From positions 1-64,000 of the forward strand of contig CAZTBP010000013.1 of NCBI GenBank assembly GCA_964612145.1: a stretch of 64,000 nt of DNA. Reading direction: 5' to 3'. Source of the DNA: an uncultured Ignavibacteriales bacterium (GTDB lineage: Bacteria > Zixibacteria > MSB-5A5 > GN15 > FEB-12). The translations under genes were made by a program, and so were the position numbers. The notes beneath the pieces were generated by a model that was given only the letters and a program-made list of their open reading frames with translations, ran no database searches and was not told where the DNA came from. This document shows positions 1-17,176 of this stretch, in pieces. Each line of letters starts with the position of its first letter. The stretch's first letter is position 1.

Positions 1-15
1 CACCAGGCGGCCTGA

Positions 16-450
16 TTATGAAACAATTTGTCTCATTTCTATTGACACATTCCAGGCGCCCGGGCTATTTGGGTGCTTTGTTCCCGTCCCGTTGCGAATA
101 GTAAAGCCGAGTAGTACCGACGTGCTATCTTCGCCCGCATTGAATGTAACTACGGTACCCGAGTCATTGTGCTGTGGATTGCTGCCATCTATAATCGAGC
201 TATCAATGTGAGCCAAATCTCCGGAGTGTACGAACTCACTGGACAACACGATTCCCTTACCCCGGAAGTGGATGTTTTCGAAATATGTACCGGGTGCAAC
301 CAGCACCGTATCTCCATCCATCGCCGCATCAATGGCAGCTTGTATCGTCGGCTGGTCGGCTGGAACATGAATAGTGGCAGCAGTAGTAAATGAAACGAAA
401 ATGCCCCACGTCAGAAGGCAGATAACAAGACGCATAAACTCTCCCCGCAT
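16..450 (-). CDS. Short secreted protein (144 aa) with a signal peptide and the N-terminal start of a right-handed beta-helix fold. Paralogous to the N-terminus of the 43020..44465 protein. Possibly a truncated gene or pseudogene remnant.
   Basis: Signal peptide MRLVICLLTWGIFVSFTTAA. The motif TIHVPADQPTIQAAIDAAMDGDTVLVAPGTY matches TIRVPADQPNIQAAVDACDGDDTVLIADGIY of the 43020 protein. The ORF stops after 144 aa, whereas the paralog is 481 aa. Confidence 0.4.
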   Translation of the reverse strand: MRGEFMRLVICLLTWGIFVSFTTAATIHVPADQPTIQAAIDAAMDGDTVLVAPGTYFENIHFRGKGIVLSSEFVHSGDLAHIDSSIIDGSNPQHNDSGTVVTFNAGEDSTSVLLGFTIRNGTGTKHPNSPGAWNVSIEMRQIVS

Positions 451-1019
451 GTTTAGATTGGTCGGAACTGCTCCAAGATAACAGAATCGACAGATTTGTC
501 AACGGTCAGATTCCTTGGCTGGATTCCTTGACAGCCGCCCGATTCTGCCCGATATTGCAAGTCCTCAAGGCCCCGCTGGTCCCCCTCCCGTGTGCTCAAG
601 CCCAACCAGCGGGGCCGTCCTTTGCCTGAACGTGGAGACCAGAGGGACTTCGAAGCCGATGTGGAACCTGATCTACCTCTGGTGAGTGCCGCGAATACTC
701 AGTAGAATCGATTGTCGAGAACTTGTCCCGACGGTCCAGGCGGAAATGCAAACTTTGACGTTTGGTCAACAATCTAAGACTTTAGAGTGCAAGTTGTTAG
801 TAAAACGACTGTGCCAGTTCGCCAACTACCAACTACCTGCATAACAACTGAAAAATCACTTGCTATCAGCGACGGGAAAGGCGATATTATGCCTCAGGAA
901 AAGGCTTGTCTTGTGTGCTGGCTCAATCAAAGTGCACTCGCAGGGTAGCCAAACTTTTGATATTCGGGACAATTTCTGCCTTGGTATTGAGGTAGGAGAC
1001 ATTGCCGGAGATACATTGA

Positions 1020-1292
1020 GTGAATGGTGAAGGGACCTTCGTTGCTTTTCTAATCGTGTTCGCGGGTATCCCCCTTATGGGCATGTTCCTGTTGCACTTG
1101 TTATTGGGCGACAAGGCGTATCAAATCTTTAAGGCTCATGCGGCAATTGCCCTTATTCGTTTTTTAGTCCTCGCTCCGATTAAAGTCGTGGCGTACTTTT
1201 TTAAGGTCATATTTGAAGCTTGGGTAAAGTACAAATCGAGCTTTGTTGCGTCGGGAGCTTCGTTTCTGCAGTTCTTGAAAAAGTTAATTTGA
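1020..1292 (+). CDS. Small hydrophobic membrane protein (90 aa), hypothetical
   Basis: ORF with two predicted TM helices in an AT-rich 850-bp otherwise non-coding stretch. No recognisable homology. Confidence 0.2.
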   Translation: MNGEGTFVAFLIVFAGIPLMGMFLLHLLLGDKAYQIFKAHAAIALIRFLVLAPIKVVAYFFKVIFEAWVKYKSSFVASGASFLQFLKKLI

Positions 1293-1314
1293 CTCTATCT
1301 TGTGGAGAAAACGT

Positions 1315-1983
1315 ATGGTAAAGGATAGAACAGTCGATCTGAAGTCCAATAACAAAGAAAAGAAGCACGAGGACAATCCCCATCCCGAAGGCCATGTTGA
1401 TAACATGCCGTCAAACCAAAATAAGGATAATTCCGTTGAGCGTAACAGAAGTAGCGAAGTTCTCGATCTGCTGGAGAAGCTGTACTGCCTTACCGAGAAG
1501 AACCAAACTTCAGTAGCCGCAGTCGCGGCAAATATGGAGCAATCCAGTAAGCAAGGAGACTTGATAAAGAGCTTGTTTGCTAAGGTGGATTCATTAGAAC
1601 GAGATACGGTATTTCGCGACAGAATCCGGCCCGTACTCCTCGACATGATCCGACTTTATGATCGCGTTGAATTGATGTGCGGTGAGATAGCAGAACCTGT
1701 CGCTGATAACGAGGCGCTTAGTGTTCGGTTAAACAGCATTCGGAGCGAGTTATCTCAGATCCTGAAACGAAATGGTGTTGAGGAGCTCGATGTGTTGCAC
1801 AGGCCATTTGATGAATCTTTCAGCGAGGCGGCAGACAAAAAGCGGGTAAACGACCCGGCGTTACATATGAAGACAGTTGAGGTCTTAAGAAAGGCCTTTT
1901 TGTGCCATGGGCGATTGCTTAGACCAGCATTGGTACTGGTCGGCGAGTGCAAACCTGAGAACGGAGATGTGTCGGATGAGTAA
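1315..1983 (+). CDS. grpE: GrpE-like nucleotide exchange factor
   Basis: C-terminal GrpE signatures VNDPALHMKTVEV (DPxxHxA) and RKAFLCHGRLLRPALVLVGE (GYxLxxRxLRPAxVxV). GGAG lies 7 nt upstream of the ATG at 1315. The stop overlaps the Hsp70 start by 8 nt. Confidence 0.6.
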   Translation: MVKDRTVDLKSNNKEKKHEDNPHPEGHVDNMPSNQNKDNSVERNRSSEVLDLLEKLYCLTEKNQTSVAAVAANMEQSSKQGDLIKSLFAKVDSLERDTVFRDRIRPVLLDMIRLYDRVELMCGEIAEPVADNEALSVRLNSIRSELSQILKRNGVEELDVLHRPFDESFSEAADKKRVNDPALHMKTVEVLRKAFLCHGRLLRPALVLVGECKPENGDVSDE

Positions 1984-3502
1984 AGTGCTTGGAATCGATT
2001 TGGGCACAACAAACTGTTGTATGGCGGTTCTGAATGAATATGGTCGGCCCAAAGTGATTACTAACTCTGAAGGGCACAACACTACTCCTTCCGTAGTGCT
2101 ATTTCGGGGCGAGGAGCGAGTCGTTGGTGTACGGGCGAAGCGAGCACGGGTTGCTCAGGCAAATAATGTCGCCATGCTTATGAAGAGGTATATACTCAAA
2201 GAACATTGGCGGTTCATCGGACCTGATGGCAAAGAATACTCTCCTGAAGAGCTGTCCGCTATAGTGCTTCGGAAACTGAAACAGGATGCAGAAAAGGCCC
2301 TCGGTGAAGAAATCAAACAAGCTGTTATAACAGTACCTGCATATTTTGGCGATTTGGAGAGGAATCGAACAAAAGCCGCGGGCGAAATGGCCGGGTTAGA
2401 CGTCCTGCGGATAATAAACGAGCCAACCGCAGCAGCTTTGGCCTATGGGCTCGATCAAGCCGAAAGCGAACAGACAATCCTCGTCTACGATCTGGGTGGG
2501 GGGACATTCGATGTGACGATTATGAAAGTAACCGGTTCAAAAATCCAGGTTATCACATCCGGTGGGAACAAGTCTCTCGGGGGAGCCGATTTCGATCAAG
2601 CGATTGTTGAGCATATGAAGGAGCAGTTCATTGCCACACACCAAGTTGACCCAACCAAGGGGGGCGAGAGTCTAGGCGTTTTACAGGACTTTCTGGATAA
2701 GGCTGAACAAGCCAAATTTGACTTGTCAGCAGATACAGAAACAGATATAAACCTTTCGGCAGAAGGGCAAGTACTTGATCTCAACCTGAATAGGCAAACG
2801 TTTGAGTCTCTTATCGCAAATTACATCGAAGAAACTAAGGGCTATATGGACCAGGCACTAAGCGATGCGAGTATGACCTGGGGCGATATAGACCGCGTAT
2901 TGCTTGTTGGGGGGTCTGTGAGAATACCGGCAGTCAAGAAGATGGTAGAAGAGGCTTCGGGCAAGACAGCTGAAGGTGGAGTCAATCCGGACGAAATCGT
3001 TGCCGAAGGCGCGGCAATTGTCGGGGCTTCTGAGGTAGGTCAAACCATCCGTAAAGAAACTGGAGAAGAGGTGTCGGGGCTCGAAGTAAGAGATGTTACC
3101 GCACACTCGTTCGGCGTCAAAGCAAAAGAAGGGGGAGCACATGTGAACTCGATAATCCTTCCGAAGGACACTTCGATTCCGGCCTCCCGTACGCGAAACT
3201 TCACGACCCCTGAAGATAACCAGACATCAGTGGAGATTATAGTTCTCGAGGGTGAAGAGTTAGACCCCGATCTTTGCGAACAGCTGGGTGCGCTCCATAT
3301 CGAGGGACTTCCGCCTAAACCGAAAGGTGTACCCAAAATCGAAGTAACCATGACTTATACGAGAGAGGCCATCATTCAGGTTACTGCCCGGGAGCTAACC
3401 ACCGGCCTTGAAATCAAGGGTGAAGTAAAGGGGTCAGGACGGACTACAGCTGCAGACATTGCAGCCGTTCAGGGGGATATTGAAAAACTAAAAATCAAAT
3501 AG
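1976..3502 (+). CDS. Hsp70-family ATPase of about 508 aa that lacks the helical lid (HscC-like non-canonical Hsp70)
   Basis: Hsp70 motifs are present: VLGIDLGTTNCCMAV, ITVPAYFGDLERNRTKAAGEMAGLDVLRIINEPTAAALAYG and VYDLGGGTFDVTIM. The protein ends right after the SBD-beta region (about 508 aa versus about 640 for DnaK). The ATG at 1976 gives the canonical N-terminus MSKVLGIDLG. Confidence 0.85.
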   Translation: MSKVLGIDLGTTNCCMAVLNEYGRPKVITNSEGHNTTPSVVLFRGEERVVGVRAKRARVAQANNVAMLMKRYILKEHWRFIGPDGKEYSPEELSAIVLRKLKQDAEKALGEEIKQAVITVPAYFGDLERNRTKAAGEMAGLDVLRIINEPTAAALAYGLDQAESEQTILVYDLGGGTFDVTIMKVTGSKIQVITSGGNKSLGGADFDQAIVEHMKEQFIATHQVDPTKGGESLGVLQDFLDKAEQAKFDLSADTETDINLSAEGQVLDLNLNRQTFESLIANYIEETKGYMDQALSDASMTWGDIDRVLLVGGSVRIPAVKKMVEEASGKTAEGGVNPDEIVAEGAAIVGASEVGQTIRKETGEEVSGLEVRDVTAHSFGVKAKEGGAHVNSIILPKDTSIPASRTRNFTTPEDNQTSVEIIVLEGEELDPDLCEQLGALHIEGLPPKPKGVPKIEVTMTYTREAIIQVTARELTTGLEIKGEVKGSGRTTAADIAAVQGDIEKLKIK

Positions 3503-3518
3503 TGTAAGGCAGACCTAT

Positions 3519-4352
3519 ATGTCGCGTGAGTATCTTCGACGAATCGGTCTTCCGTCATCGGCCACAGAAAAGCAGATCGAAAATCGCATGACCGAACTGA
3601 TTCGCAAGCTGCAGAATAAACTCAATAGCCCTGTTATCTCGCATCGCGATCAAATTGAGAAGGAACTTGAAGAGTTGTTTCAGATTCGTGCCGCTCTGCG
3701 GGTTGGAAATAAAGAGGCTGGGTTGCAAGACGACGAAGAGAATTCTTCGTCCGATGAGAGCCTCGAGATATCTTATGGGGAGTTAACCGAAGGACTGGGA
3801 ATTGAGGAAAACTGTGAACCCTCAACTTCCAATGTTGGCTTGCTAATCGATACCTCTGGTAGCATGTCTGGCACAAAGCTGAAGGATGCCAAAATTGCGC
3901 TGGAGTCCTTTCTGAGTAACCTTGATGGCAACCAGATTATGGTTGGGCTCGCGGAATTTGGCAATACCATAAGTGTGGTTAGTGATCAAACATCCGAATT
4001 GGACCGGGTCAGGTCATCTATTGGCGAGCTTGTTTGTGGTGGAAGCACACCGCTATATGAGACTCTTGAGCTGGCTAGTAGCAAATGGTCATCCTTCTTG
4101 GGACAGAGTTTTTTATTCATTGTCGCGACAGACGGCCATCCTAACGGTTCCACTGAGCGCATTCTATCTCTCGCCGAGGAGATTAAAGAGCGGGGGGTTA
4201 GATTTATTACAATTGGCATCGGTTCCGATGTTAACGTCAAATTTCTGCAGGATTTGGCATCTACTCCAGAGGATTATTACTTTGCAGAGGCTAGTATACA
4301 ATTAGAGAGCATTTATCGACAAATTTCAGATGGGCTTGCGAGTTTAGACTAG
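3519..4352 (+). CDS. von Willebrand factor A (vWA/MIDAS) domain protein with an N-terminal degenerate J-like helical domain
   Basis: MIDAS motif LLIDTSGSMSG plus downstream GGSTPLYETL and ATDGHPNG. Residues 1-60 (EYLRRIGLPSSATEKQIENRMTELIRKL...SHRDQIEKELEELFQIRAAL) resemble J-domain helices II and III, with HRD in place of HPD. Confidence 0.65.
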   Translation: MSREYLRRIGLPSSATEKQIENRMTELIRKLQNKLNSPVISHRDQIEKELEELFQIRAALRVGNKEAGLQDDEENSSSDESLEISYGELTEGLGIEENCEPSTSNVGLLIDTSGSMSGTKLKDAKIALESFLSNLDGNQIMVGLAEFGNTISVVSDQTSELDRVRSSIGELVCGGSTPLYETLELASSKWSSFLGQSFLFIVATDGHPNGSTERILSLAEEIKERGVRFITIGIGSDVNVKFLQDLASTPEDYYFAEASIQLESIYRQISDGLASLD

Positions 4353-4370
4353 ATAAGGGAAACGATCGCT

Positions 4371-6521
4371 ATGGGTAAGTTCATAGACTATTTTGCGGAG
4401 CTCAACGAGGCGAAACTGCAGGGTGTTGGCAAGCTGATTCTGCGGTTAGATGCTAGACAGACAAACTTGGAGATTATAGAGAAGATCAAAATTCGACTAG
4501 GCAATAATCCCAGTAAACAGGCTGAGTATCTGCAGGGGCTTGCTCGAGAAGCTCGACCCATTTTCGAGGATAATAAGAAATACGCGGATTACTTTAAAGC
4601 GTATATTAGTTATGTGATTGAGACAAAGGTTAAAGAGGCACTTCTTGACGGGGAAGTTTCGCAAAAGGAGCTATCGATAATAGTTCAAGCAGCACGTGAG
4701 TTAGGTGAGTCAGATGAAAAGACTATAAAAACAATAAAAGATCTTGTCGAGGATGCGCATGGCATCATTGAAGATCCTCGGTCGGATGGGGGAAGAGAAT
4801 TTAGCACGCCATCCCGCAGTAAGTTCACGGACTATTTTGCTGAGCTAAATGGTGCCAAACTCGCTGGTATTAGCAAGCTGGTTCCAAAGTTGGATGCTAG
4901 ACTTACCAATTTGGAAATTATTGGGAAAATGAAGATTCGATTAGGTAATAATCCTAGTAAGCAAGCTGAGTACTTGCAGGGACTTGCGCGGGAGGCGCGT
5001 CTTATTTTCGAGGACGATAAGAAATACAGGGAGTACTTGATAGCTTACGTTGGATATGTGATTGAGACGAAGGTTCAATGGGCACTCGGCCTGGACGGAA
5101 AAATATCGCAAGAGGAACTGTCTATAATAATCCAGTCGGCACGAGACTTAGGCGTGTCCCATGAAGTTGCTTTAAAGACAATAAAAGTCCTTGTTAAGAA
5201 CGCAGGCGGTACCATTGAAAGCCCTGGGTCTGGGGGGAGAAGAGAATTTGGGAAGCCACCTCCAAAAACTCAGCCACAACCGAAAGCGCCACCGCAGCCT
5301 GGCGCCGGACAGAGGCAGCAATCGGGTGCCGGAGCGGGGTCGTCAACATCCGGTTCAGGAACGACCTTCGGTTTAGACAACTTGACCCCGGTCGAGAAGG
5401 CTAACATAGCCACCAGTATCGCTGGAACGCTTGGATTGCTCTACGTTCTTCTCAAAGTCACCTGGGTACCGCTGAATTGGTGGGGATTGCTGATTCCTGC
5501 GATCGCAGCGATTATCTCTATCAAAAATGCGAATTTGCCCGTGAAGAGGCACGCATGGAGCCTGGTAGCAATTCTATTCTTGTATTTCTGGAATGCTGCT
5601 CTACTATTAGTGCTCCTACCGACTTTTCTCCTTTGGCACTGGAGTCCAGTAATCTTCGCAAAGCTGAAACTGAAGCCGTCATATGTCTGGATTTTGCCCA
5701 TTGTCCTCTGCCTCGGCGTATATTCAACGTCATACGCAGTTAAACGTGTTCCCAGGAGAACCAGTAACATGGGATTTGTACAGCCAGCACCTAAACCTCC
5801 AGTCCAGCAGCAAGCTCCGCGGCAAGAGCGAAATACGCAAAATCGACCGGCGCAGACCAAGCCTGTGCCACAGTCATCCTCGGGCCAGTCACAACCGACT
5901 CAGACACGAAGGTCACAAACCACTTCGCCTCCCACGAACACGGTGAAGACAACAAAACCACCGACAACATCGGTGCCGCCAAAGACACAGGAGCCTAAGC
6001 CCCCAGCGACACGTACTCAGCCGAAGTCGGTTACATATGTATTCAATGCAGACAGCAGTGCATTCGAGCTATACTCGTCCGAGGGGATTCAAGGGACCGG
6101 AATAGTCGTCAACCAGGGTGACAGTATCATTATTGATGTTAGCGATAAGACGACTGTGGTTTGGAGTGAGGGCGAAGACCCGGTTGGGCCGGCCGGTTCG
6201 TCAGCCATCGCGTTGAGTCGAAATAATGGGACGGAGTTTTTAATTCCACAATCGCCATGCGGTGCCGTCATCGGTAGAATCGGTCAGGCAGGCAAGTGGT
6301 TCTGCATTGGACAGAAGTATCGTGCGCAAGCTGATAGAGAGGGCGAGCTTTTCTTGACAATCAATGACCGGCCGAACGGATTTGCTGACAATTTTGGCTT
6401 TTTCGGACTAAGTATAATCGTCAAGAGAAGGGTACCAAAGACTGCCAGCCTATTCGCTCCGGATTCAAAGCACGTCTTCGCGCAGGACGTTGAAATTTAC
6501 GAGATTAGGGGTGCAATTTGA
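4371..6521 (+). CDS. Multidomain membrane protein with 2x TerB-like about 148-aa tandem repeats (cytoplasmic), a PGS-rich linker, 4-5 TM helices, a P/T/Q-rich linker and a C-terminal PA-IL/LecA-like lectin domain
   Basis: Two about 75%-identical repeats, KFIDYFAELN...ELSIIVQAARELGES and KFTDYFAELN...ELSIIIQSARDLGVS. A hydrophobic block lies at aa 340-455. The C-terminus (GDSIIIDVSDKTTVVWSEG...GAVIGRIGQAG...NDRPNGFADNFGFFGLSI) parallels LecA (DVITIVAAGWASYGP...GALVMKIGNSG...NDVPGTYGNNSGSFSV). Confidence 0.6.
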   Translation: MGKFIDYFAELNEAKLQGVGKLILRLDARQTNLEIIEKIKIRLGNNPSKQAEYLQGLAREARPIFEDNKKYADYFKAYISYVIETKVKEALLDGEVSQKELSIIVQAARELGESDEKTIKTIKDLVEDAHGIIEDPRSDGGREFSTPSRSKFTDYFAELNGAKLAGISKLVPKLDARLTNLEIIGKMKIRLGNNPSKQAEYLQGLAREARLIFEDDKKYREYLIAYVGYVIETKVQWALGLDGKISQEELSIIIQSARDLGVSHEVALKTIKVLVKNAGGTIESPGSGGRREFGKPPPKTQPQPKAPPQPGAGQRQQSGAGAGSSTSGSGTTFGLDNLTPVEKANIATSIAGTLGLLYVLLKVTWVPLNWWGLLIPAIAAIISIKNANLPVKRHAWSLVAILFLYFWNAALLLVLLPTFLLWHWSPVIFAKLKLKPSYVWILPIVLCLGVYSTSYAVKRVPRRTSNMGFVQPAPKPPVQQQAPRQERNTQNRPAQTKPVPQSSSGQSQPTQTRRSQTTSPPTNTVKTTKPPTTSVPPKTQEPKPPATRTQPKSVTYVFNADSSAFELYSSEGIQGTGIVVNQGDSIIIDVSDKTTVVWSEGEDPVGPAGSSAIALSRNNGTEFLIPQSPCGAVIGRIGQAGKWFCIGQKYRAQADREGELFLTINDRPNGFADNFGFFGLSIIVKRRVPKTASLFAPDSKHVFAQDVEIYEIRGAI
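4377..5264. repeat. In-frame tandem duplication (2 x 444 bp) that encodes the two TerB-like repeats
   Basis: DNA and protein near-identity between 4377-4820 and 4821-5264. Example pair: gcaataatcccagtaaacaggctgagtatctgcagggg versus gtaataatcctagtaagcaagctgagtacttgcaggga. Confidence 0.8.
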
Positions 6522-6740
6522 TTCGTCAACAGTGACTAAACGTTCACAGTTTTTGACTGGAGTGTTAACGCAGGTGCAAATAGACACCAAATGTCAGTAC
6601 GCAGGGCATTAGATAGGACCTCTTCTCAGACGGAGAACATGTCCCTTTGCGTAACGTCGCACATGACAGATAAAGTCTATGTGCTTGCCACAAAGAAACG
6701 TCGACTGAGTAGATACACATACATCTGGAGGCATGGTCTC

Positions 6741-7937
6741 ATGAAGTACTTACGGGTCTTCGCCCTGTTCTGTCTGGTTCTTTCATACGCTGGATGCGGT
6801 GGTCCTAAAACGCTACGAGCACCAGTTCCTTATGAAAGTCAGAACGAATATACCGTCGATGATGTCATCACGGAAATGGTAACTGAAGCCTGCAGTCGCT
6901 TGCAGACAGAAGGGGCTAAAGGGAGGGTTGCTCTCCTGGACTGCTACAGTGCGTCGGGCAAATCTACCTCCTTGGAGGGCCGCATAAGTAATGTTCTTCT
7001 CGCAAAGTTTAGTGAATGTGCTACATCCGGAAGAACTTCTTTTAGCATTGTTCAGCCTCAAGTTATCGCATCCAATATGGCAGCACTTGATCTGTCGGCT
7101 CGAGCCGCGAATATCAAAAATAACGCTGACACGTGGAAGAGACTGGGGGTCCAAATGGTGGCCTCATGTCGTTGGCTACCGAATCCAAACGAGTCAATCA
7201 AGGTAATCTTTGAGTTTTTCGATGTAAGTTCGGGCGGACGACAAATTTTCACTATTGAGAGAACTCTGGAAAAAGATGACGATCTTCGAAAACTGCTCGG
7301 TGAAAAATTGCCCGGAATGCTCATAGTCGAATCGGAAACCGCCGGGTCGAGGGTGTACGTCGACGGCGAATTTAAGGGCGAGATAACTTCTGATCCGATA
7401 TCATTTGAAGTTCCCTACGGTACACACAGTCTCCGAATTGACCGGTCAGGGCACAAGTCCTTCTCTAAGAGTGTGACGATCGAAGAACGAGAGTCAGAAT
7501 ACCTGAAGGTGAAATTCACGCAGTCGCATCTGGCTCCAATGAATTCCGCCCTCTTGAGTGCGTTACTACCCGGCCTAGCATTGGCGGTCTATGGTCCGGA
7601 AGCTAAGGACAACGTTGCTTCGGCTTCTCACGGCATCGCAGCGGCGTTATTCTACACGGCTGCAATTTGCTGGGTGGTAGATGAAAGCAAAGACGATCCA
7701 TTCTTGACGCGCGACAATGACGACCGGTATAAAACTATCAAGAATATTGAGTTGTACACAGCGCTTGGCGCATATGTGGGCAATATAATTACTGGTTGGT
7801 TCGTTGGTAACGAGTACCGGAAGGAAACAAAAAGGGGGGTAGAGATCATGGCTCAAGAAATTCCGGACAGGCTGATCTTCTATGCAGATCGTAGCCACAA
7901 CGGCGACATGATTTTGAAGGTTGGCCTTAAATTCTAA
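6741..7937 (+). CDS. Lipoprotein with a PEGA domain and a C-terminal hydrophobic region
   Basis: Start at 6741 gives MKYLRVFALFCLVLSYAGCGG, a lipobox. The PEGA motif is LIVESETAGSRVYVDGEFKGEITSDPISFEVPYGTHSLRIDRSGHKSF. TM-like segments follow near aa 300-400 (LLSALLPGLALAVYG, AAALFYTAAICWVV). The 150-nt upstream extension in the ORF track has no support. Confidence 0.55.
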   Translation: MKYLRVFALFCLVLSYAGCGGPKTLRAPVPYESQNEYTVDDVITEMVTEACSRLQTEGAKGRVALLDCYSASGKSTSLEGRISNVLLAKFSECATSGRTSFSIVQPQVIASNMAALDLSARAANIKNNADTWKRLGVQMVASCRWLPNPNESIKVIFEFFDVSSGGRQIFTIERTLEKDDDLRKLLGEKLPGMLIVESETAGSRVYVDGEFKGEITSDPISFEVPYGTHSLRIDRSGHKSFSKSVTIEERESEYLKVKFTQSHLAPMNSALLSALLPGLALAVYGPEAKDNVASASHGIAAALFYTAAICWVVDESKDDPFLTRDNDDRYKTIKNIELYTALGAYVGNIITGWFVGNEYRKETKRGVEIMAQEIPDRLIFYADRSHNGDMILKVGLKF

Positions 7938-7954
7938 AAAAGTAGGTATCAGTA

Positions 7955-8323
7955 ATGAAACACATAGCTCTATTATTGGTATTGGCTCTGATGGCGAGTT
8001 TTCAAGGCTGTGCGAGTATCTTGTCTTCAGACACAGAGGTAGTTGGAGTGGCTAGATTGGAAGGTGCTCCTAGCAATGGTCATGGCGGGATACTTATCAG
8101 TAATGGACACGTAAGCGCCATTTCAGCATCAGACGGTACATTCACCCTATCGGGTCAGGTTCTCAAAGACACTGATTTCGATGTTATATTCTCAAAAGAC
8201 GGATACATATCTCAGGTGGTCAATATCTTCATCGATTATGCACCGGGAGATGATTCGGATGAGGACGATGGTCCCCTCGTAGTAGATGTTGGTACTGTTA
8301 CCTTGCCCTTGCAAAGTAAGTGA
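7955..8323 (+). CDS. Small lipoprotein with a carboxypeptidase-regulatory-like beta-sandwich domain
   Basis: Lipobox MASFQGCAS. The motif GILISNGHVSAISASDGTFTLSGQV resembles CarbopepD_reg. Confidence 0.45.
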   Translation: MKHIALLLVLALMASFQGCASILSSDTEVVGVARLEGAPSNGHGGILISNGHVSAISASDGTFTLSGQVLKDTDFDVIFSKDGYISQVVNIFIDYAPGDDSDEDDGPLVVDVGTVTLPLQSK

Positions 8324-8385
8324 TACTTACGATCTGTGGCATTCAATAGTATTGGTGAAGAGTCAGCTATAATTGGATATCTCCC

Positions 8386-9234
8386 ATGGAGCCAGTAATT
8401 AAGGACCAAGTTCGGTCATGGTCGCAGTTGAGTGCTATTCTGCAGGACGCTCGAGGGGTAGTAGATGCGGCCGGTATGAAGATGTTTTCAAATGGATACT
8501 TTCGTCCCGGGGATTTCAGTGAATTCGTTGTTGGAGCGGACCTTTTTTGTCTCGTTGGTTGGCCGATCAGTCTCCACTTGAATAGTGCGGTTGAGACTAC
8601 CGAGAAGTTTCTCAGGGCAAGTGAGAGTATCGAAAATACAGCTGGTCTAAGAAATGTATTAGCTAATTCGGTCATTCAGAGGTCCAAGGACGAGGATTCG
8701 GGTATTTTAGTGCATTGGAAGTTCATTGTGAATTCAGACAAGAAGTACTATAAGGACCGATATCGACGATACCCCGATGGCGGCTTCCTCCATACAGTCG
8801 ACACGCTTCTGTGGGAAACACACTGCCTATCAATGTGGGCATTGTCATTTTGGTATGATATCGCAGGAGCAGTACCTTCTGGCGACGCAGATCGTATAGC
8901 TGAAATCACCGACCGTCTTCTGGCCCTGATCAATGATCTTTTTCCAGACAAAGTCATCCAGGAAGACGATTCTCTCTTTGGCCTTGGTTTTGACGCTATA
9001 GACTCAGAGTTTATAATGTCAGCACTGGAAGAACACTACACTGGGAAGTCAGCACGGAAGCAGACTACTGAAGCCATGGGAAACTCTCCAACGAGTTCTT
9101 TGACCGAGGCTGAGTGGCTACAGGCAAGCGTAGGAACGTGGCGTGTTGATGGAAGATCAATTGAAGGTACTAAGTTGATGGTAATGCCGCTCTCACAGCT
9201 CGTAAAGTGGGTAGATATTCGAATTGACGGCTGA
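8386..9234 (+). CDS. Hypothetical protein (282 aa)
   Basis: Long ORF with no recognisable motif. It lies in the low-GC island. Confidence 0.4.
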   Translation: MEPVIKDQVRSWSQLSAILQDARGVVDAAGMKMFSNGYFRPGDFSEFVVGADLFCLVGWPISLHLNSAVETTEKFLRASESIENTAGLRNVLANSVIQRSKDEDSGILVHWKFIVNSDKKYYKDRYRRYPDGGFLHTVDTLLWETHCLSMWALSFWYDIAGAVPSGDADRIAEITDRLLALINDLFPDKVIQEDDSLFGLGFDAIDSEFIMSALEEHYTGKSARKQTTEAMGNSPTSSLTEAEWLQASVGTWRVDGRSIEGTKLMVMPLSQLVKWVDIRIDG

Positions 9235-9296
9235 AACTATGAGAGGAATCGAATTTTGTTGAGCAGAATTGTCGTATTTGATTCGGAGGTAAACTC

Positions 9297-9641
9297 GTGA
9301 AGTTAATTATCAAACGGGCTCAAGCCGAGCAGAAAGGGCTCTTTGGAGGGCACAAAGGAATGAAATTTACTCTGTCGTGTCAGGTTGACCTATCGGATGA
9401 AGAGAGAGGACTCCTTGAGAAATACAATGTTGAAGAGCATCCGTTGACGTACAGACAGCAAGATGGAGTAGATGTACCGGCTCTCAGAATCGGCGACTTG
9501 GTGCGTGGAAGAACTTACGAGGTAAACGACGTAAGCACGCTGCTCAATAACGAGGAAGTCATCAAGAATGCCTGTCATGACTTCAAAATGTTGTTAGAAG
9601 TTATGCGCTCCTTCGGGGGTGAGGAAGTAGTCGAAATATAA
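9297..9641 (+). CDS. Hypothetical protein (114 aa)
   Basis: ORF with no recognisable motif. It lies in the island cargo. Confidence 0.35.
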   Translation: MKLIIKRAQAEQKGLFGGHKGMKFTLSCQVDLSDEERGLLEKYNVEEHPLTYRQQDGVDVPALRIGDLVRGRTYEVNDVSTLLNNEEVIKNACHDFKMLLEVMRSFGGEEVVEI

Positions 9642-9674
9642 TAAGTGACTATTGAATTTTAGGGAGAGAAAATT

Positions 9675-9821
9675 ATGGCTGAAAAAGAATGTCCCGTATG
9701 TCATTACTCCGGAAAGTGCCCCAAATGTAATGGTAGGGGTGGTGGATTTACGACTGTTTGCTCCACCTGTAAGGGTACTAAGAAGTGTCCCCGTTGTGAC
9801 GGCAAGGGCGTAATCAAGTAA
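9675..9821 (+). CDS. 48-aa DnaJ-type zinc-finger (4 x CxxC, CxxCxGxG) mini-protein. It is not in the supplied ORF track.
   Basis: My own translation gives MAEKECPVCHYSGKCPKCNGRGGGFTTVCSTCKGTKKCPRCDGKGVIK*. The four CxxC units are CPVC, CPKCNGRG, CSTCKGTK and CPRCDGKG, which match the DnaJ cysteine-rich CxxCxGxG repeat. RBS agggagag lies 8 nt upstream. Confidence 0.55.
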   Translation: MAEKECPVCHYSGKCPKCNGRGGGFTTVCSTCKGTKKCPRCDGKGVIK

Positions 9822-9898
9822 GAGTTGGCTTAAATATAGAACATCTCCGGATTGATGGGTCCGCGTCGTAGCACCGGGGACGGACGAAGGAGTTTGAT

Positions 9899-10612
9899 AT
9901 GGATTTGGCCATTTTAAGAATTCATGCTACCAAAGCAGTCGGATCTCTTGTTGCGGGGGGGATTCGTGGCATTGCTTTCTTTGGTATTTTCGGGATGATA
10001 GTGGGAGGCACGATGTTTTTTGTAATTCAGTCCGTGACCAAACACTCCGATGGAGTCGGGAGTTTCATTCTAATGCTTGCTTGGATCGTGGTAGGACTTC
10101 TTCTTGGTGGATTTATCGGCTTCTTCCGGGGCTTACGTGGCGTCTGTCGACAATCACTGGTCAAGAGTCATTGGGTAAACGACGCGTGCGATAGACTATC
10201 ACGGGAGACAATTGGAAGGCTGCGTTCACCCCAGAAGCAGTCGAATCTACAAGTCGAGCTGAAGGAACTGGTCATGACCTGTCAACAGGAACAGGAGTTG
10301 TCAGATCAGCACGTTAAAAAAGATCGAGCCACCGGCGGTGTTGTCAGGCGAATGGTCGAGCGAATCACTGTTCTCCCCCAATTGGCTGTCCGCAAATGCT
10401 TCACCGACCTGATCAACCAAATGTCCGCAAGTATAGAATCTGACGCTGCGCTGTCAGCGCTCGTTGACCGGTTCCCCGAGGAGTTGAAGAGCCGCACGAA
10501 TTCACTTATCGACGCCTGGATTAAACAAATCTTTGCAAGGCCACTAGGAATAGCATACGTAGTTACTGGATGTGCGGTAGTCCTATTGGCTATCCTGACC
10601 GTCTTGATCTGA
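9899..10612 (+). CDS. Membrane protein, hypothetical (237 aa)
   Basis: Two N-terminal and one C-terminal TM helices. No other motif. Confidence 0.4.
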   Translation: MDLAILRIHATKAVGSLVAGGIRGIAFFGIFGMIVGGTMFFVIQSVTKHSDGVGSFILMLAWIVVGLLLGGFIGFFRGLRGVCRQSLVKSHWVNDACDRLSRETIGRLRSPQKQSNLQVELKELVMTCQQEQELSDQHVKKDRATGGVVRRMVERITVLPQLAVRKCFTDLINQMSASIESDAALSALVDRFPEELKSRTNSLIDAWIKQIFARPLGIAYVVTGCAVVLLAILTVLI

Positions 10613-10708
10613 TGTTATTTACACTCTCGTTTGTGCAATATTCCTAAGCAGCATTTAAGGTCCATAAAGGTACCAACACCCATATATATAGACACCAATT
10701 TGTGAATT

Positions 10709-11821
10709 CTAAACTTCTCCACCCCCTTCTTCAAACGGCAGTTTCTCCACCGCATTCGCCAGGTGATCCGGGCCGAGGTGGGCGTAGATCATGGTCGTTT
10801 CTATATCCGAGTGGCCCATCAGCTTCTGAACCGTTGGGAGATCGACGCCCTGCATTACCAAGTGGCTCGCGAACGTGTGGCGAAGCGTATGGACTTTCGT
10901 GAACTCCCCGATCTCGGCCTTCTTGGCGATTTTAATGAGCTCCATCCGGAGATAGTTGTGCATGTTCTTCCCTGACGACTTCACCGGAAAGACATAATCG
11001 TTCTTCGAACGGCCGTCTCGCTTCCGATGCAAGTCGGTAAGGAGCTTCAGGAGGCCATCGCTGATCGGGATGTCCCTCTCCCCCGTCTTCGGCCGCCAGT
11101 CCTTCTTCCGACGGATACTGATCTGTCGCCGCTCAAGATCGATATCGGCCCAGGTGAGATTCTCAAGCTCCGCTTTCCGCATGCCTGTATGAAGAAATGT
11201 ATAGTAGATCGGGTAGAGATTCGGCGGGCAGACGTCAAGGAACCTCCTGCATTCATTGACGGACAGAAATCGAGGCGTCTGATTTTCATCTACCTTCAGC
11301 TTCGCCACACCCTTGGTCGGATTCTCTCGAATGTATCCCCACTTGATCGCCAGGTTGAAAATTAGCCGAAGCGTATCGAGCTCAAAATTCACTGTACGCG
11401 ACTTGGCCACCTTGGGCGACCTACCCCCATTGGCATCTTCCTCGACGGCAGGACTACCGCCGTTGGCGTTCTTCCGAAACACCTTGTACTTGTCGATGAC
11501 CTCGGTCGAGACATCGGAAACATATCTGACCTTCGGCGAGGACTGGAGGAACTCCCGGAAATGATCAATCACCGCCCGATAACGGTCTGTCGTCGTCTTA
11601 CGGTGAGTAGCCTGGCTGTACTCAAGGTAGGAATCAAGAAAGTCGGTCAGCGGCATCTTGGCCTGGCCAAAACCATGCTCTTCTTTGGCAATCTTGACCT
11701 CGGCTTCCTTGAGAGCCAGCTCGGCCACTTTCTTCACCGGCCCGATTCGTCGGCGCACCCTGCGCCCATCGACCCGAATATCAAGATACCAGACTTTGCC
11801 GCGCTTATAGATTTCGCCCAT
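10709..11821 (-). CDS. int: Tyrosine site-specific recombinase / phage-type integrase
   Basis: C-terminal catalytic box [39 protein letters not shown] (R...HxxR...Y). An N-terminal SAM-like/AP2 region is present. The gene sits immediately 3' of tRNA-Leu. Confidence 0.9.
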
Positions 11822-11931
11822 ATCGACGTCTCCCCTTGGTCACAAGTTGGTCACAGCCCTGTTTTCCAAGAAGGAACGAAAGACTTAAGTCGTTGTCAAG
11901 TGGGAAGTTGAATCGGAGGGGAAAATCTAAA

Positions 11932-12015
11932 TGCCGAAGGGGGGATTCGAACCCCCACATCCTTACGGATACTGCGCCCTGAACGCAGCGCGTCTACCTG
12001 TTTCACCACTTCGGC
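11932..12015 (-). tRNA. tRNA-Leu (anticodon CAG), class II with a long variable arm
   Basis: Reverse complement reads GCCGAAGTGGTGAAACAGGTAGACGCGCTGCGTTCAGGGCGCAGTATCCGTAAGGATGTGGGGGTTCGAATCCCCCCTTCGGCA. The acceptor stem is GCCGAAG/CTTCGGC. The anticodon stem-loop is CTGCG-TTCAGGG-CGCAG. The T-arm is GGGGGTTCGAATCCCCC. Confidence 0.85.
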
Positions 12016-12164
12016 ATTCATAACGACTCCGGGGAAACACCGCAATTGCTGCCAATCACGCCCTTCCCTCGGGCCGCCGAGGCCGGTGAACCGCCTCGGT
12101 AGTCGCCAATATATACGCTCTGGCTCGTAACGCAACAGCAATTTTCAAGGCCGGAACAACAGAT

Positions 12165-14477
12165 CTACCGGCCACCTTGATTCAACGATAAACGGACTCC
12201 ATCGCCAAACCGCTTCCCCTCATAAAACAAGCCAAAGCGTAATGTCGTATACTCCGGCCGGTTCGGTATTACCGTATGTACCATGCGAACATCTTCCTTC
12301 TGCCAGTTATTGAAACGCGGCAGTGGCAAGAAGTCATGGTTGTCGAAACTATCCCCATCACCAAAAGCATGCAGGAAGATGCGGTAACTACTGGTTGGCT
12401 CCACTCGCGCATGCAATGTCAGAAATAAATGGAGACTGTCTTTTCTGTCAACCACTAGTGTATTCATCAGATCAAATCGCCCATCCAGATCATAGGCGAT
12501 AGAGTCCATCGGGAAATCACGCCATTTTGTCCAGTCGACACCCAAATACCGATCGGATTCCTCCTGAGCAGACACGTTGAGCCATTGACGTATCACCCGC
12601 CACCGAGCAAGGAAAAGCAGACTGTCACGGCTGGTGCCTTTGAACCTCCATTGCCCTTGCCCGGCAGTCGTCGGTGAGTCCACAACAGAAAAGAATCCAT
12701 CCACCTCCTGTCGTCGGAAAAACCTCTCGTCTTCGAACACCTCCGGGCTGAACTGAATTTCTTGCAGCGTGTACCGATTGGGATAGTTATCCAGGACCAT
12801 CGTCAAATACAGCACACTCTCGCGACTGCGCAGGTGGACAAAATCAACACCATCGAAAGTGTTGCTTGTCAGTGTAAGATTCAAGAGATACGGATCGTCT
12901 ATATGCTGCACCAGCGAAAGCAACCGATAGCGGCCGGTATACCGAGCCGCCGGATGACTGTAGTGATGATTAGGCGCCACAAAAAGATAAACCGGATAAA
13001 ATGACGGCAACTCTTCCCAGGCACTCAGAAATACCGTACCTCGACGCGGCACCATCCGTTCTTCACCAAAACCCCAGTTTGCCGGTTGACTTTTCCTCGC
13101 TTCCGCAATCCCTCCCGACTTCCCAACGACATTCGCCTGGTAGACAAGTGACAACAGCAACACAATACCCAAGGCTGCGAACACTCGCTGCACCCGTGGT
13201 CGCCCGTGCGCGGCCCGACTGAATGCAACCAGTGCCAATGCGATCACGGGACCGGTCACAAATGCAAGAAACTCTGCGGCCTTGATGAGATTGATCGGAC
13301 GGTCCAGGGCACCGAGAAAAGTCCCGAGCAGATAGTAACAGACTATCCCGCTAACCAGTGTTACCAGAGCCCGGTTTACGGAGGAATGGACTCTCCGCAA
13401 AGCATAAAGCAGCCCGCCCAGGAACAGAAGACCGGAAACGGTGAGAGTCATAAAACTGAAATTGACCCCCACGGAATCAATATGGTGCCACCCCGTCCCT
13501 TTGTCGACCCCGTATTTCGCGATGTCCGCCATCAATGGACCCCAGTAAAGACTGCTAACAACCGCCGCCGCCAACATGACACCTATTGCCGGCCATAGTC
13601 GAAATGAGTCGCGGACATATGGACGAATGAGACGGCTAAAAAAGACAACGCGAAGCAGTAGCAAGAATCCGCCAATGAAAAAACCGTAGAAATAGGTCAT
13701 AAAAATCAGGCCACCGATGAGGCCACCCCGCACAAAAAACGACCGGGTCGGCGCTGGATGTTTCACCTGCTCTATATAATAGAGCCACCAGGGAACGAAA
13801 AAAATATTCCCGAGCATCGCGTGCGGGACAGACAGTGCAAAGGCTCTCCCCCCTAGCAGGTAAACGAAACTCACGACCGTAATCACGGCCGCCTGACGAT
13901 CACTCACTATGCGACGCCACAAAAACCAGACAAAGAACGGGCTGACAAAGTGAATCGCCTGCGCCGCAAACTTCATCATAGCAAATGACGCAGCGTCATC
14001 AAGCCGCGCGAACAATGAAAGGACATAATACAACACCGGCGGGTAAAACGGTGAGAGGTCCTTGTAGTAAAAATCCTTCGGAACCCACCAAGTGGCAAAC
14101 TTCTCAATCATCGCGATCCGGAACTTCTGGTCCCCCCAGTATCCATTCAAACTAAACGCCGTTCCGTCAAGCAGCAGGCAGATGACGACATACCCGTACA
14201 CCGACACTACCGCGACAAGAACCGCCGACTTGATCCGCCAGGAAACTCCCGCAAGCCAAACCACCACCGTAGTCAAGACAAACAACAACCCCCACATGTC
14301 CAGCCAGATCAGGTCCCGAACCAGTAGCGTTTCTGAAAACGGCTTTGGGGTTGAACTGTACTGCCACAGATAAACAGCCATCCCCCCGAACAAGACCAAA
14401 GCAACAGCGGCAATCCAGTTCTTCGGAGTAAACCAGCGCGTGCTGTGCATCCTGTCCATCAGACCGCCTCCGTACAA
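12165..14477 (-). CDS. Large polytopic membrane protein (770 aa) with about 12 N-terminal TM helices and a C-terminal soluble domain. Possibly a GT-C-type glycosyltransferase.
   Basis: Strong hydrophobic periodicity over aa 20-480. No ATP or other motifs. Architecture only. Confidence 0.5.
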   Translation of the reverse strand: MYGGGLMDRMHSTRWFTPKNWIAAVALVLFGGMAVYLWQYSSTPKPFSETLLVRDLIWLDMWGLLFVLTTVVVWLAGVSWRIKSAVLVAVVSVYGYVVICLLLDGTAFSLNGYWGDQKFRIAMIEKFATWWVPKDFYYKDLSPFYPPVLYYVLSLFARLDDAASFAMMKFAAQAIHFVSPFFVWFLWRRIVSDRQAAVITVVSFVYLLGGRAFALSVPHAMLGNIFFVPWWLYYIEQVKHPAPTRSFFVRGGLIGGLIFMTYFYGFFIGGFLLLLRVVFFSRLIRPYVRDSFRLWPAIGVMLAAAVVSSLYWGPLMADIAKYGVDKGTGWHHIDSVGVNFSFMTLTVSGLLFLGGLLYALRRVHSSVNRALVTLVSGIVCYYLLGTFLGALDRPINLIKAAEFLAFVTGPVIALALVAFSRAAHGRPRVQRVFAALGIVLLLSLVYQANVVGKSGGIAEARKSQPANWGFGEERMVPRRGTVFLSAWEELPSFYPVYLFVAPNHHYSHPAARYTGRYRLLSLVQHIDDPYLLNLTLTSNTFDGVDFVHLRSRESVLYLTMVLDNYPNRYTLQEIQFSPEVFEDERFFRRQEVDGFFSVVDSPTTAGQGQWRFKGTSRDSLLFLARWRVIRQWLNVSAQEESDRYLGVDWTKWRDFPMDSIAYDLDGRFDLMNTLVVDRKDSLHLFLTLHARVEPTSSYRIFLHAFGDGDSFDNHDFLPLPRFNNWQKEDVRMVHTVIPNRPEYTTLRFGLFYEGKRFGDGVRLSLNQGGR

Positions 14478-14769
14478 AGTGGCTTGTCCCGTCCAGGGGC
14501 TGCTTGCAGTATCCTGATTGTTAATTTTGCCATTAGCTTGGGAAATGATAGGCTTGCCGATTGGCAGGTGTCAACAATCTTCCGGTCAAAAAGTCGTAAA
14601 CCCTTTAGAAAATGTATTGAATTGTCCAGCGTCGGGCGCTATGTTAACTTTCATAAGTCGACCGAAATTGTGCCTCTCCTGAGGCGAAGAGTGTTACGTA
14701 TCATTCAGCAAACCGGGCATTGAGCAATGGGACGGGGCCTATCTCAGTTGCTATAGTTGCTCATGGAGC

Positions 14770-16035
14770 GTGCGCATGTCAGCTTTTCTCGAAGCACTTA
14801 CCTCACATGACTCCCCAAAAAACCGAGCCCCCGCTCGACCAGCTATCTCACGTCGCGATCTGGCGGCCGTGCTGCTGCTTTCAGTCGTTTTAGCGGCGGT
14901 TTCGTACTTCGTCAACCAATACGACGGGGCCTATCTTATCCGATCCGATGCCGTATGGGAAAATAATCTCGAGTTTCACCAAACCTATCATCCCTTTGCA
15001 ACTCGAGTTTTCACTACTACTTTGATGCAGATCGGACATGAGCAATTTGGTCTCAGGCTCGTGACGGCATTCGCCATTATCCAGTATTCACTATTCATTG
15101 TTCTCGGTCCGTTATGTTTCGTCTTCCTTCGCCACGCGGGCCTTCGGCGGTCCAGCAGCTACCTCGGTGTTCTGGTTATGCTTACTGCTTATCCGATACT
15201 CGCCGCCTTTCATATGCCCATTTACACATGGGACGACTTCTGGATGTATGGCGCCATAATGCTGACGTTTACGCTTGCTTTTCGGGCCCGCCTTATCATA
15301 GCGAGCCTCGTCTTCGGTGTGGGAATCCTCGCACGAGACCCTATTATATTGTTTTATCCCATTCTGGTACTTGCTGTCTGCCAGTCGCCGGGCAGCCGAG
15401 CCACGAAGATTATTGCGGCACTTAGCCCGCTGGTCATATATTTCGTATTCATCATTTTCGCAATGGAGCCACCTGATCAGGCGCGCTGGATGAATTTCAG
15501 CAAAAACTTCCTCAAACCCGATTGGGCAAAGAATACCGCATTCTCTTTCGTCGCCGGGATGGGGATATTGTGGTTGTCCGCGCCAGTGGCTGGTGTTCGG
15601 CTCGGTCAAACCCTCCTGCGTCTGAATATCCCGCGTTTGATCCTCATTGGAGCTGCCTTCATCACGCCGCTCACAGTATTGACGGCCCTAACCATGGGGT
15701 TGGCCCGAGAAACCCGATTATTCTTCCCACCAGTCTTCTTTGCCCTCCCACTATCACTTTACCTGCTTGAATATTATACGCGATTCCATAAAAAGCCCCG
15801 GTCTTGGCTTCTAGCGGCTGGACTTGCGGCAATGGGAGCATCGGCCTGGCTTGGCATCCAAATTGCGCGATTCGTCTTTCCCCAACTCGAAGGACGTACC
15901 TGGCCGGCGTTCTTCCAGGCACATCTTGGAGTAAACATAGGTCTGGGAATTTGCTTCTTACTTTTTGTGATCTATCGGATTGTTCGAACAACGCCGCGAC
16001 TGCAGAAACCATCCTCCAGCAAGTACGTTCAGTAA
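14770..16035 (+). CDS. Polytopic membrane protein (421 aa), hypothetical
   Basis: More than 10 predicted TM helices. Adjacent to other envelope genes. Confidence 0.5.
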   Translation: MRMSAFLEALTSHDSPKNRAPARPAISRRDLAAVLLLSVVLAAVSYFVNQYDGAYLIRSDAVWENNLEFHQTYHPFATRVFTTTLMQIGHEQFGLRLVTAFAIIQYSLFIVLGPLCFVFLRHAGLRRSSSYLGVLVMLTAYPILAAFHMPIYTWDDFWMYGAIMLTFTLAFRARLIIASLVFGVGILARDPIILFYPILVLAVCQSPGSRATKIIAALSPLVIYFVFIIFAMEPPDQARWMNFSKNFLKPDWAKNTAFSFVAGMGILWLSAPVAGVRLGQTLLRLNIPRLILIGAAFITPLTVLTALTMGLARETRLFFPPVFFALPLSLYLLEYYTRFHKKPRSWLLAAGLAAMGASAWLGIQIARFVFPQLEGRTWPAFFQAHLGVNIGLGICFLLFVIYRIVRTTPRLQKPSSSKYVQ

Positions 16036-17094: not shown

Positions 17095-17176
17095 CTGCCA
17101 ATACCAGTGATCCAGCTAACAGACTACCATCCCACTCAACCGTAACAGCCGTATTGCAAGACGCCAACTTCACCAC

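Follow-up and report, generated by a model that had tools for sequence, protein, structure and literature searches.

The left end of a 64,000-nt stretch of DNA from an uncultured Ignavibacteriales bacterium (assembly GCA_964612145.1, contig CAZTBP010000013.1, positions 1 to 64,000; hereafter the window) was found to carry a cassette encoding a divergent GrpE, an Hsp70 that lacks the lid, a von Willebrand factor A (vWA) protein with a J-like N-terminal domain, and a membrane protein with two further, probably J-like modules and a lectin domain. The reading favoured here, to which an even chance is given, is that these proteins make up an Hsp70-vWA chaperone/co-chaperone machine that spans the envelope, is self-contained and is borne by an integrative island. 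The four core open reading frames (ORFs), at 1315-1983, 1976-3502, 3519-4352 and 4371-6521, all lie on the + strand and specify proteins of 222, 508, 277 and 716 amino acids (aa), with identical lengths on record as called genes of a 109-kb contig. The GrpE stop and the Hsp70 start overlap by 8 nt (ATGAGTAA), and the two genes are translationally coupled; the overlap is also present in two related loci, L004 and L007. Gaps of 16 nt, between the Hsp70 and vWA genes, and of 18 nt, between the vWA and membrane-protein genes, each contain a Shine-Dalgarno-like sequence. The initial annotation had described four co-directional, tightly spaced or overlapping genes, and this layout was confirmed.

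The 508-aa Hsp70 (1976-3502, +) comprises the nucleotide-binding domain (NBD) and the beta part of the substrate-binding domain (SBD-beta), with a Pfam HSP70 match (PF00012) of E = 3e-140 and 468.7 bits against a cut-off of 20.6, the profile being covered up to position 517 of 599. The ATPase motifs GIDLGTTN, NEPTAAA and DLGGGTFD are intact and R167 is retained. Aligned to Geobacillus DnaK (PDB 2v7y), the protein covers residues 1-480 and its tail, EKLKIK, reaches no further than the first turn of lid helix A; DnaK lid queries found no lid-like coding sequence near the gene in any frame, so that the earlier claim of an Hsp70 stopping right after SBD-beta held. Independent lidless homologues, of 507-537 aa, share this stop position in the alignment (511 aa in L004, 507 in L005, 508 in L029 and 537 in both L007 and L030). 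In the interdomain linker, the window's signature LEVRDVTAHSFG replaces the canonical VLLLDVTPLSLG; among the lidless proteins, the linker and first SBD strand read phi-x-phi-x-D-V-T-[AS]-H-S-[LF]-G, with the His invariant and extra residues after it, whereas 12 canonical DnaKs retained a VLLLDVTPLSLG-type motif and formed a tight separate clade. Judged from these alignments, the Hsp70 is a member of a distinct lidless subfamily that is marked by a derived linker signature. In the NCBIfam scan, the label "HscC-like" found no support, no HscC model being among the matches. One candidate member, P0017, was rejected on its canonical VLLLDVTPLSLG-type linker and its grouping with the DnaKs. Short hydrophobic/charged tails were observed at the ends of the lidless Hsp70s (3440-3502 in the window, and in L004, L005, L007, L029 and L030), with the sequences EKLKIK, EGLKVK, GKLAIG, QSLEVE, NKIAVTG and KSLEVS. 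Such a tail resembles an Hsp70 client motif and could be bound by SBD-beta in cis or in trans, leading to self-inhibition or polymerisation, or could dock at the metal-ion-dependent adhesion site (MIDAS) of the vWA domain.

The 222-aa nucleotide-exchange factor (1315-1983, +) is likewise divergent. Its Pfam GrpE match (PF01025; E = 3e-14) reached 53.5 bits against a cut-off of 25.8 over profile positions 50-164 of 165, and it fell far below all NCBIfam equivalog cut-offs for housekeeping GrpE, the best being 34 bits against 176. The Hsp70 behaved similarly with the DnaK equivalogs NF001413 and TIGR02350 (472.8 bits against 648, and 469 against 822), in agreement with the earlier proposal of a dedicated, non-housekeeping Hsp70/GrpE pair. 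A reading of the two genes as ordinary dnaK-grpE, of the housekeeping or stress kind, beside unrelated genes, with the lid lost through an assembly or frameshift error, is regarded as very improbable. The Hsp70 is 46-50% identical to canonical DnaKs, and a true frameshifted dnaK does exist: P0134 (529 aa) was rejected as a lidless Hsp70 on being recognised as the frameshifted housekeeping gene of a dnaK-grpE-dnaJ-hspR-clpB operon. In the island, however, the order is grpE-hsp70 without dnaJ, the genes lie in low-GC DNA by an integrase, and neither the missing lid sequence, nor the shared stop position, nor the sub-threshold scores of both proteins would be expected of a damaged housekeeping pair. 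No second Hsp70 was found in the window.

The 277-aa protein joins a vWA domain with a complete MIDAS (aa 105-267; 3831-4319, +; Pfam VWA, E = 1e-18, 68.6 bits against a cut-off of 23.8) to an HPD-less J-like domain (aa 1-65; 3519-3713, +). The MIDAS residues (DxSxS, T, D), D111, S113, S115, T177 and D205, are invariant in a six-member alignment of the vWA family. When a profile was built from the three J-vWA N-termini only, DnaJ J-domains were the top PDB matches (E = 0.0019), with residues 3-65 co-linear with 4-61, and comparison of the N-terminus with canonical J domains by hhalign gave E = 4.9e-6 at 86% and, in a second comparison, 1.3e-5, the probabilities being 80-86%. The position of the HPD motif reads QNK and Pfam DnaJ gave no match at E <= 0.1, so the N-terminus is termed J-like and is not counted as a member of the J-domain family (PF00226); neither HPD nor HPE occurs in any of the J-like domains linked to lidless Hsp70s. 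The fusion of a degenerate J-like domain to a MIDAS-containing vWA domain, proposed in the initial annotation, was upheld.

The 716-aa membrane protein (4371-6521, +) was found to consist of two predicted cytoplasmic modules, a Pro/Gln-rich linker, about five transmembrane (TM) segments, a Pro/Thr-rich linker and a PA-IL domain. Module 1 (aa 1-135; 4371-4775, +) is duplicated as module 2 (aa 148-285; 4812-5225, +), with a direct repeat of 268 nt (4375-4642 and 4819-5086) that is 77% identical in DNA and with modules that are 69% identical in amino acid sequence; the duplication noted earlier is real, and "near-identical" slightly overstates it. The description of the modules as TerB-like stood only in part, since Pfam TerB (PF05099) gave no match at E <= 0.1. 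What was found is a hairpin at aa 79-124 weakly similar over 47 residues to DjlA positions 129-174 (NCBIfam, E = 0.0067), covering the second half of DjlA's TerB-like region only; a hairpin profile aligned with residues 129-175 of Escherichia coli DjlA at E = 7.7e-5 in hhalign. For the part ahead of the hairpin, the window modules matched small proteins of L002 and the homologue P0140 (hhalign, E = 1.3e-11), these small proteins matched canonical J domains (hhalign, E = 1.9e-4), and a merged eight-sequence profile aligned with canonical J domains over 67 columns (E = 2.2e-6, 89% probability), with HPD aligned to LGN. Compared directly with J domains by hhalign, the window modules were not significant (0.099), a profile of membrane-type modules gave no significant hhalign match to canonical J domains, and a modules-only profile found no J domain and no significant TerB match in the PDB. 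Each module is probably a very divergent, HPD-less J-like domain followed by a single DjlA/TerB-type helical hairpin, as far as these profile comparisons indicate.

The PA-IL/LecA-type lectin domain (aa 571-686; 6081-6428, +), also named in the initial annotation, was recovered by Pfam PA-IL (PF07828) at E = 9.7e-6 and 26.1 bits against a cut-off of 22.5, and in the PDB it matched PllA (5odu; E = 2.8e-5) and LecA (E = 0.002-0.019). The motif LTINDRPNGFADNFG retains the Asp and the Asp/Asn-Asn pair (ND...DN), as read from the LecA/PllA alignment; in the LecA structure, these residues bind Ca. The TM region (aa 344-457; 5400-5741, +) was delimited by a hydropathy scan as about five hydrophobic segments, and it is weakly co-linear (E = 0.007) with the TM block of a 737-aa protein in L030. 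The lectin domain probably faces outward, because a cytoplasmic N-terminus followed by five TM segments would place it there; this topology also leans on the 737-aa protein, whose C-terminal SH3b and CarboxypepD_reg domains are normally extracytoplasmic. The lectin fold proposed earlier is thus borne out, and its extracellular location is retained as a prediction. An exhaustive HMMER search with aa 1-290 against 1.84 billion representatives returned two matches, the query and P0140, and a word-indexed homologue search with the whole 716-aa protein returned the query alone, the low-complexity linkers having probably swamped the candidate list.

Relatives of the cassette were recovered by searches started from the vWA protein alone. 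A lidless Hsp70 was found immediately upstream of the vWA in seven independent loci, L001, L002, L003, L006, L007, L029 and L030, and the linkage of Hsp70 and vWA in other (meta)genomes is concluded to exceed chance by far. The closest is L001 (Hsp70 72%, vWA 64% and membrane protein 60% identity), followed by L002 (Hsp70 48%, vWA 40%), in which the two genes precede two small J-like/hairpin proteins, and by L003 (Hsp70 38%, vWA 45%). L006 and L029 exhibited vWA identities of 36-37%, with an Hsp70 identity of about 37% in L029; the L006 contig, from a Paceibacterota metagenome-assembled genome (MAG), contains just the last residues of the Hsp70. In L007 and L030 (Hsp70 about 37-40%, vWA 37%), the two proteins are fused in a single ORF, of 706 aa and 695 aa, respectively, with the vWA at the position of the lid, and each locus also has, next to the fusion, a GrpE and a second lidless Hsp70 that stands alone. 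The vWA protein carries an N-terminal HPD-less J-like domain in the window, L001 and L002. A vWA of the same clade (43% identity) was also found in L026 (2073-3478) and L027 (735-2820), where it immediately follows a coiled-coil protein with a canonical HPD-bearing J domain at its end; no Hsp70 was visible on either contig, and L026 has a TM protein with beta-propeller-like repeats upstream. These two loci look like a version of the system that borrows the host DnaK. The vWA clade is accordingly tied to Hsp70 in three ways, through a fused J-like domain, a neighbouring J protein or a fused Hsp70, and, among the loci recovered, HPD is missing from every J-like domain that adjoins a dedicated lidless Hsp70 and kept in the two loci without one. 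A 35% vWA match in L008 was rejected as a relative, since it falls within an unrelated 1487-aa secreted protein.

The L030 locus mirrors the window layout almost gene for gene, with a GrpE, the Hsp70-vWA fusion, the second Hsp70, a 127-aa J-like protein, the 737-aa protein (J-like module, hairpin, five TM segments, and outer SH3b and CarboxypepD_reg domains), a PEGA-domain lipoprotein and a small lipoprotein. The architecture of the 737-aa protein, and that of P0140, is related to that of the window's membrane protein, and the outer domain varies with the locus: PA-IL lectin in the window, SH3b with CarboxypepD_reg in L030 and TPR in P0140. A wider class combines GrpE and a lidless Hsp70 with a J-like protein that has a different C-terminal domain. 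It is represented by L004, with a 250-aa J-like protein, and by L005 of Thermoflavimicrobium dichotomicum (7222-17524), where a GrpE, the 507-aa lidless Hsp70 and a J-like-TPR-TM protein are flanked on one side by a HATPase_c_3 (MORC-like) gene and on the other by a Tad-pilus cluster (CpaE-like, prepilin peptidase, CpaF and TadB/C). In a second variant (L003, 2141-4631; L029, 10648-13752; L006, 1029-2125), the vWA that accompanies the lidless Hsp70 has no J-like domain, and the neighbourhood also contains a multi-TM protein, a coiled-coil protein and a HerA (DUF87)-type ATPase; a GrpE was seen in L029, where the variant lies on an element with tyrosine and serine recombinases. In L007, the Hsp70-vWA/GrpE/Hsp70/J-like core is flanked, at 688-3585 and 13427-17603, by a 965-aa caspase (Peptidase_C14)-CARDB protein, two FGE-sulfatase proteins and a CsgG-like lipoprotein.

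Beyond the four core genes, the conserved unit of the window extends downstream. A PEGA-domain lipoprotein with a hydrophobic C-terminal region is encoded at 6741-7937 (+; Pfam PEGA, E = 8.6e-11), in an ORF that opens at 6591 and has its probable start at Met51, with the lipobox LSYAGC. The product of the ORF 6591-7937 is 37% identical (E = 1e-35) to the gene at the same position in L030, whose orthologue also matches FlgO, LpoB and CsgG-type N-domains. It is followed by a 122-aa lipoprotein (7955-8323, +; lipobox FQGC), probably a beta-sandwich, that is 33% identical (E = 1e-12) to its counterpart behind the PEGA gene of L030, the L030 copy having a weak likeness to CarboxypepD_reg. A 114-aa protein (9297-9641, +) has its homologue directly upstream of the Hsp70-vWA fusion gene in L007. 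The four genes described in the initial annotation are therefore part of a larger conserved unit. Two further island genes, at most candidate members of the system, gave no match in Pfam, NCBIfam, PADLOC or PHROGs: a co-directional gene for a 282-aa protein (8386-9234, +), without homologue in the related loci, and a gene for a 237-aa protein with about three TM segments by hydropathy (9899-10612, +), the last one ahead of the integrase.

The envelope character of the conserved partners (PEGA, FlgO/LpoB/CsgG-like lipoproteins, SH3b, CarboxypepD_reg and lectin) would also suit a dedicated assembly chaperone for a cell-surface structure made of the lectin, PEGA and other envelope proteins, without a role in signalling or conflict, in the manner of MxDnaK2 (SglK) of Myxococcus xanthus and its upstream GrpE. 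This alternative is considered possible but on the unlikely side. The position of the L005 triad directly upstream of Tad-pilus genes is in its favour, as is the precedent in M. xanthus, where a GrpE gene lies upstream of this specialised DnaK paralogue (PMC11019930), the two affecting social behaviours. The outer domains, however, change from locus to locus, as would be expected of sensors or effectors more than of a fixed structure, and the Hsp70-vWA core of L003 and L029 is paired with a HerA-type ATPase on a recombinase-bearing element. The caspase and FGE-sulfatase proteins of L007 also argue against a pure assembly role, these being typical components of conflict systems (Kaur et al. 2020, PMC7159879). 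Finally, the genes lie on a mobile island, and their sequences form a rare family that evolves fast: all the cassette proteins were singletons when clustered at 90% identity, and the module search mentioned above gave two matches in 1.84 billion representatives.

The island itself was delimited from composition and gene content. Within the first 12 kb of the window, nine co-directional + strand ORFs are followed by a convergent integrase and a tRNA, and the GC content is 0.445-0.51 across 1-11 kb against 0.51-0.62 further right. The right end is formed by a tyrosine integrase (10709-11821, -; Pfam Phage_integrase, E = 6.6e-33, and SAM-like domain, E = 6.8e-11) and by a tRNA-Leu(CAG) (11931-12016, -; ARAGORN, Rfam tRNA 49.2 bits) whose 3' end faces the integrase and which is the probable integration site. 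The integrase, the tRNA-Leu and the GC drop support the earlier placement of the four core genes in a low-GC putative island, here taken as integrative. Flanking att repeats, or a copy of the tRNA end, were not found within 1-12100, which puts the other end of the island left of the window. A 144-aa ORF at the left edge (16-450, -), with a signal-peptide-like N-terminus and no Pfam match, is still in the low-GC region, so the island continues leftward. A 90-aa ORF (1020-1292, +) with two hydrophobic segments and no family matches stops 22 nt ahead of the GrpE start and may be the first gene of the operon or spurious. Promoter and terminator scans gave results near the shuffle expectation, hence no operon boundaries were drawn from them. 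The element was without match in the plasmid set, a viral contig scan with the vWA alignment revealed no relatives, and phage matches to the Hsp70 were rejected as ordinary DnaKs of megaphages or host DNA.

To the right of the tRNA-Leu, ordinary chromosomal genes were observed, among them an AftA-like glycosyltransferase, a C5-epimerase, a sigma-70 factor and HtrA. The first two, an AftA-like arabinofuranosyltransferase-family membrane protein and a glucuronyl C5-epimerase-like protein (12165-17094), adjoin the tRNA, so that the island was inserted beside envelope-polysaccharide genes. Further along the host chromosome, a Ser/Thr protein kinase (28118-29839, -; PknB-like, E = 1e-111) adjoins a 667-aa TPR protein with PilW/PrsT-like repeats (25997-28000, -), and a 1117-aa protein (38998-42351, -) contains many thrombospondin type-3-like repeats; the NCBIfam MtsC cell-cell cohesion model aligned with this last protein in 17 stretches (3e-199), and an Omp28-related selenoprotein model matched it as well. 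The flanking genes additionally gave matches to multihaem-cytochrome-like models and, taken together, might very tentatively hint at a lineage of deltaproteobacterial type.

The initial annotation had not recognised the combination as a described system. In the searchable full-text literature, no description of an Hsp70-vWA couple or of HPD-less J-like tethers was found, and the nearest sources for the combination were the papers of Kaur et al. and general reviews of Hsp70 and J proteins. Part of the architecture is nevertheless already published, as Kaur et al. (eLife 2020, PMC7159879) described themes of Hsp70, GrpE and DnaJ fusions within GTPase-centred conflict systems. Their GAP1-N2 systems, defined by one or more TRAFAC GTPases with Zn-ribbons, by GAP1-N2 and by an FNIII-repeat protein, resemble the window in having a dedicated Hsp70 and GrpE, together with a partner protein that bears a J-domain or TPR fusion, and in being membrane-proximal with PEGA, SH3b or beta-sandwich domains beyond the TM segments, vWA and FGE-sulfatase (FGS) proteins occurring in related themes (PMC7159879). 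The differences are that neither a GTPase nor a GAP1 or FNIII-repeat protein was found in the window or in L030, a locus that looks complete between unrelated flanking genes; that the Hsp70 here has the vWA as its obligate partner, in fusion either with a J-like domain or with the Hsp70 itself; and that the J-like domains lack HPD and the Hsp70 lacks the lid but retains SBD-beta. In the same paper, vWA is treated as a co-chaperone of MoxR, with RavA-ViaA and midasin cited. These MoxR-vWA ternary systems share with the window an ATP-driven chaperone, a MIDAS-bearing vWA co-chaperone and variable partners, some of them peptidoglycan-associated (PEGA), but in the window the engine is Hsp70 with GrpE and not an AAA+ MoxR ring. 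Pfam and NCBIfam scans of the island ORFs gave no match to GTPase, GAP1, FNIII, MoxR/AAA+, VMAP or iSTAND, and the system has the defining features of neither MoxR-vWA nor GAP1-N2. Specialised Hsp70 paralogues with their own linked or membrane-anchored co-chaperones are also known from HscC with DjlB/DjlC (PMC8215388) and from MxDnaK2 with its upstream GrpE (PMC11019930); for neither has lid loss been reported or a vWA partner described, and their J proteins keep HPD or HPE (PMC10410713). A large J-protein survey excluded sequences without a full HPD motif (PMC10410713), a filter that may explain why such adaptors escaped notice.

The membrane protein also invites comparison with DjlA, which cooperates at the membrane with DnaK and GrpE: each of the two is membrane-anchored and has a helical element of TerB type alongside a J-type domain. 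A DjlA-like system for envelope-stress signalling, in which the membrane protein would recruit Hsp70 and GrpE and switch on a host stress pathway with the vWA as an accessory, is judged improbable. The DjlA-type hairpin after each J-like domain and the cooperation of DjlA, DnaK and GrpE would agree with it, and TerB-DnaJ is a major known J-protein architecture (PMC10410713). In the window, however, the order is the reverse of that in DjlA (J-like domain, then hairpin), the Pfam TerB and DnaJ thresholds are not reached, the unit is duplicated and HPD-less, and a mid-protein TM block and a C-terminal lectin are added. In addition, no linked kinase or regulator gene was found in the island by the Pfam and NCBIfam scans, and the vWA is the most strictly linked partner, being even fused to Hsp70, which makes it no side component.

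For the envelope-spanning Hsp70-vWA machine, the following mechanism is proposed. The engine would be the lidless, fast-cycling Hsp70, driven by ATP and reset by GrpE, and the vWA would act as co-chaperone or client adaptor, brought to the Hsp70 by the J-like tether or by fusion. The MIDAS of the vWA may capture an acidic or extended client peptide, and the Hsp70 may then remodel or gate the complex, in a role that would parallel that of MoxR for vWA in the "ternary" conflict systems. The J-like/DjlA-type modules would hold the Hsp70 under the membrane, at the cytoplasmic end of a surface-exposed lectin sensor or anchor, with a likeness to the DjlA-DnaK-GrpE module signalling from the membrane, and the PEGA and small lipoproteins would anchor the assembly to the wall. 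Loss of HPD and the altered interdomain linker may insulate the system from the housekeeping DnaK/DnaJ. Conflict or containment, envelope-stress signalling and surface-structure assembly are the candidate outputs, and a mobile-element-borne response to cell-surface events, serving conflict/containment or envelope stress, is the most likely role.

Several observations weigh against this interpretation. PADLOC-DB 2.0 gave no significant system: its sole signal was a weak match of the Hsp70 NBD to the candidate-system protein PDC-M61B (E = 0.0045), and the other eight island proteins were without match. No recognisable toxic effector was found in the window, and the left end of the island lies beyond it, so that more components, for example a GTPase, may be encoded there. 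About ten related loci were recovered, most of them on short metagenomic contigs; the membrane topology is read from hydropathy and the L030 orthologue; and the HPD-less J-like domains may fail to act on Hsp70 altogether. As to PDC-M61B, the match hints that an actin/Hsp70-fold ATPase may already be part of a candidate defence system.

The system is read as an NTPase chaperone and vWA couple with a dedicated Hsp70/GrpE/J module, with a real chance that it defines a class of its own. The broader proposal, that lidless Hsp70, GrpE, vWA and HPD-less J-like tethers make up an unrecognised cross-phylum class, in which an orthogonal engine gates a membrane or envelope response to invaders or surface cues and would join MoxR and the GTPases as the third kind of NTPase "thresholding" engine for vWA-based conflict systems, is a tentative one and is held to be more doubtful than probable. 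In the usual view, Hsp70 serves protein folding in general and is directed by J proteins that bear HPD. The proteins described here depart from it in three respects, namely lid loss throughout a subfamily, a rewired interdomain linker, and hard-wiring to a vWA and to envelope-spanning partners, and they would extend the logic of a chaperone with a vWA co-chaperone from the MoxR AAA+ ATPases to Hsp70. If the system answers phage or surface cues, it would be an Hsp70-driven member of the bacterial conflict systems and, if the interpretation is true, would also show that insulated, orthogonal circuits of Hsp70 and co-chaperones occur in nature.

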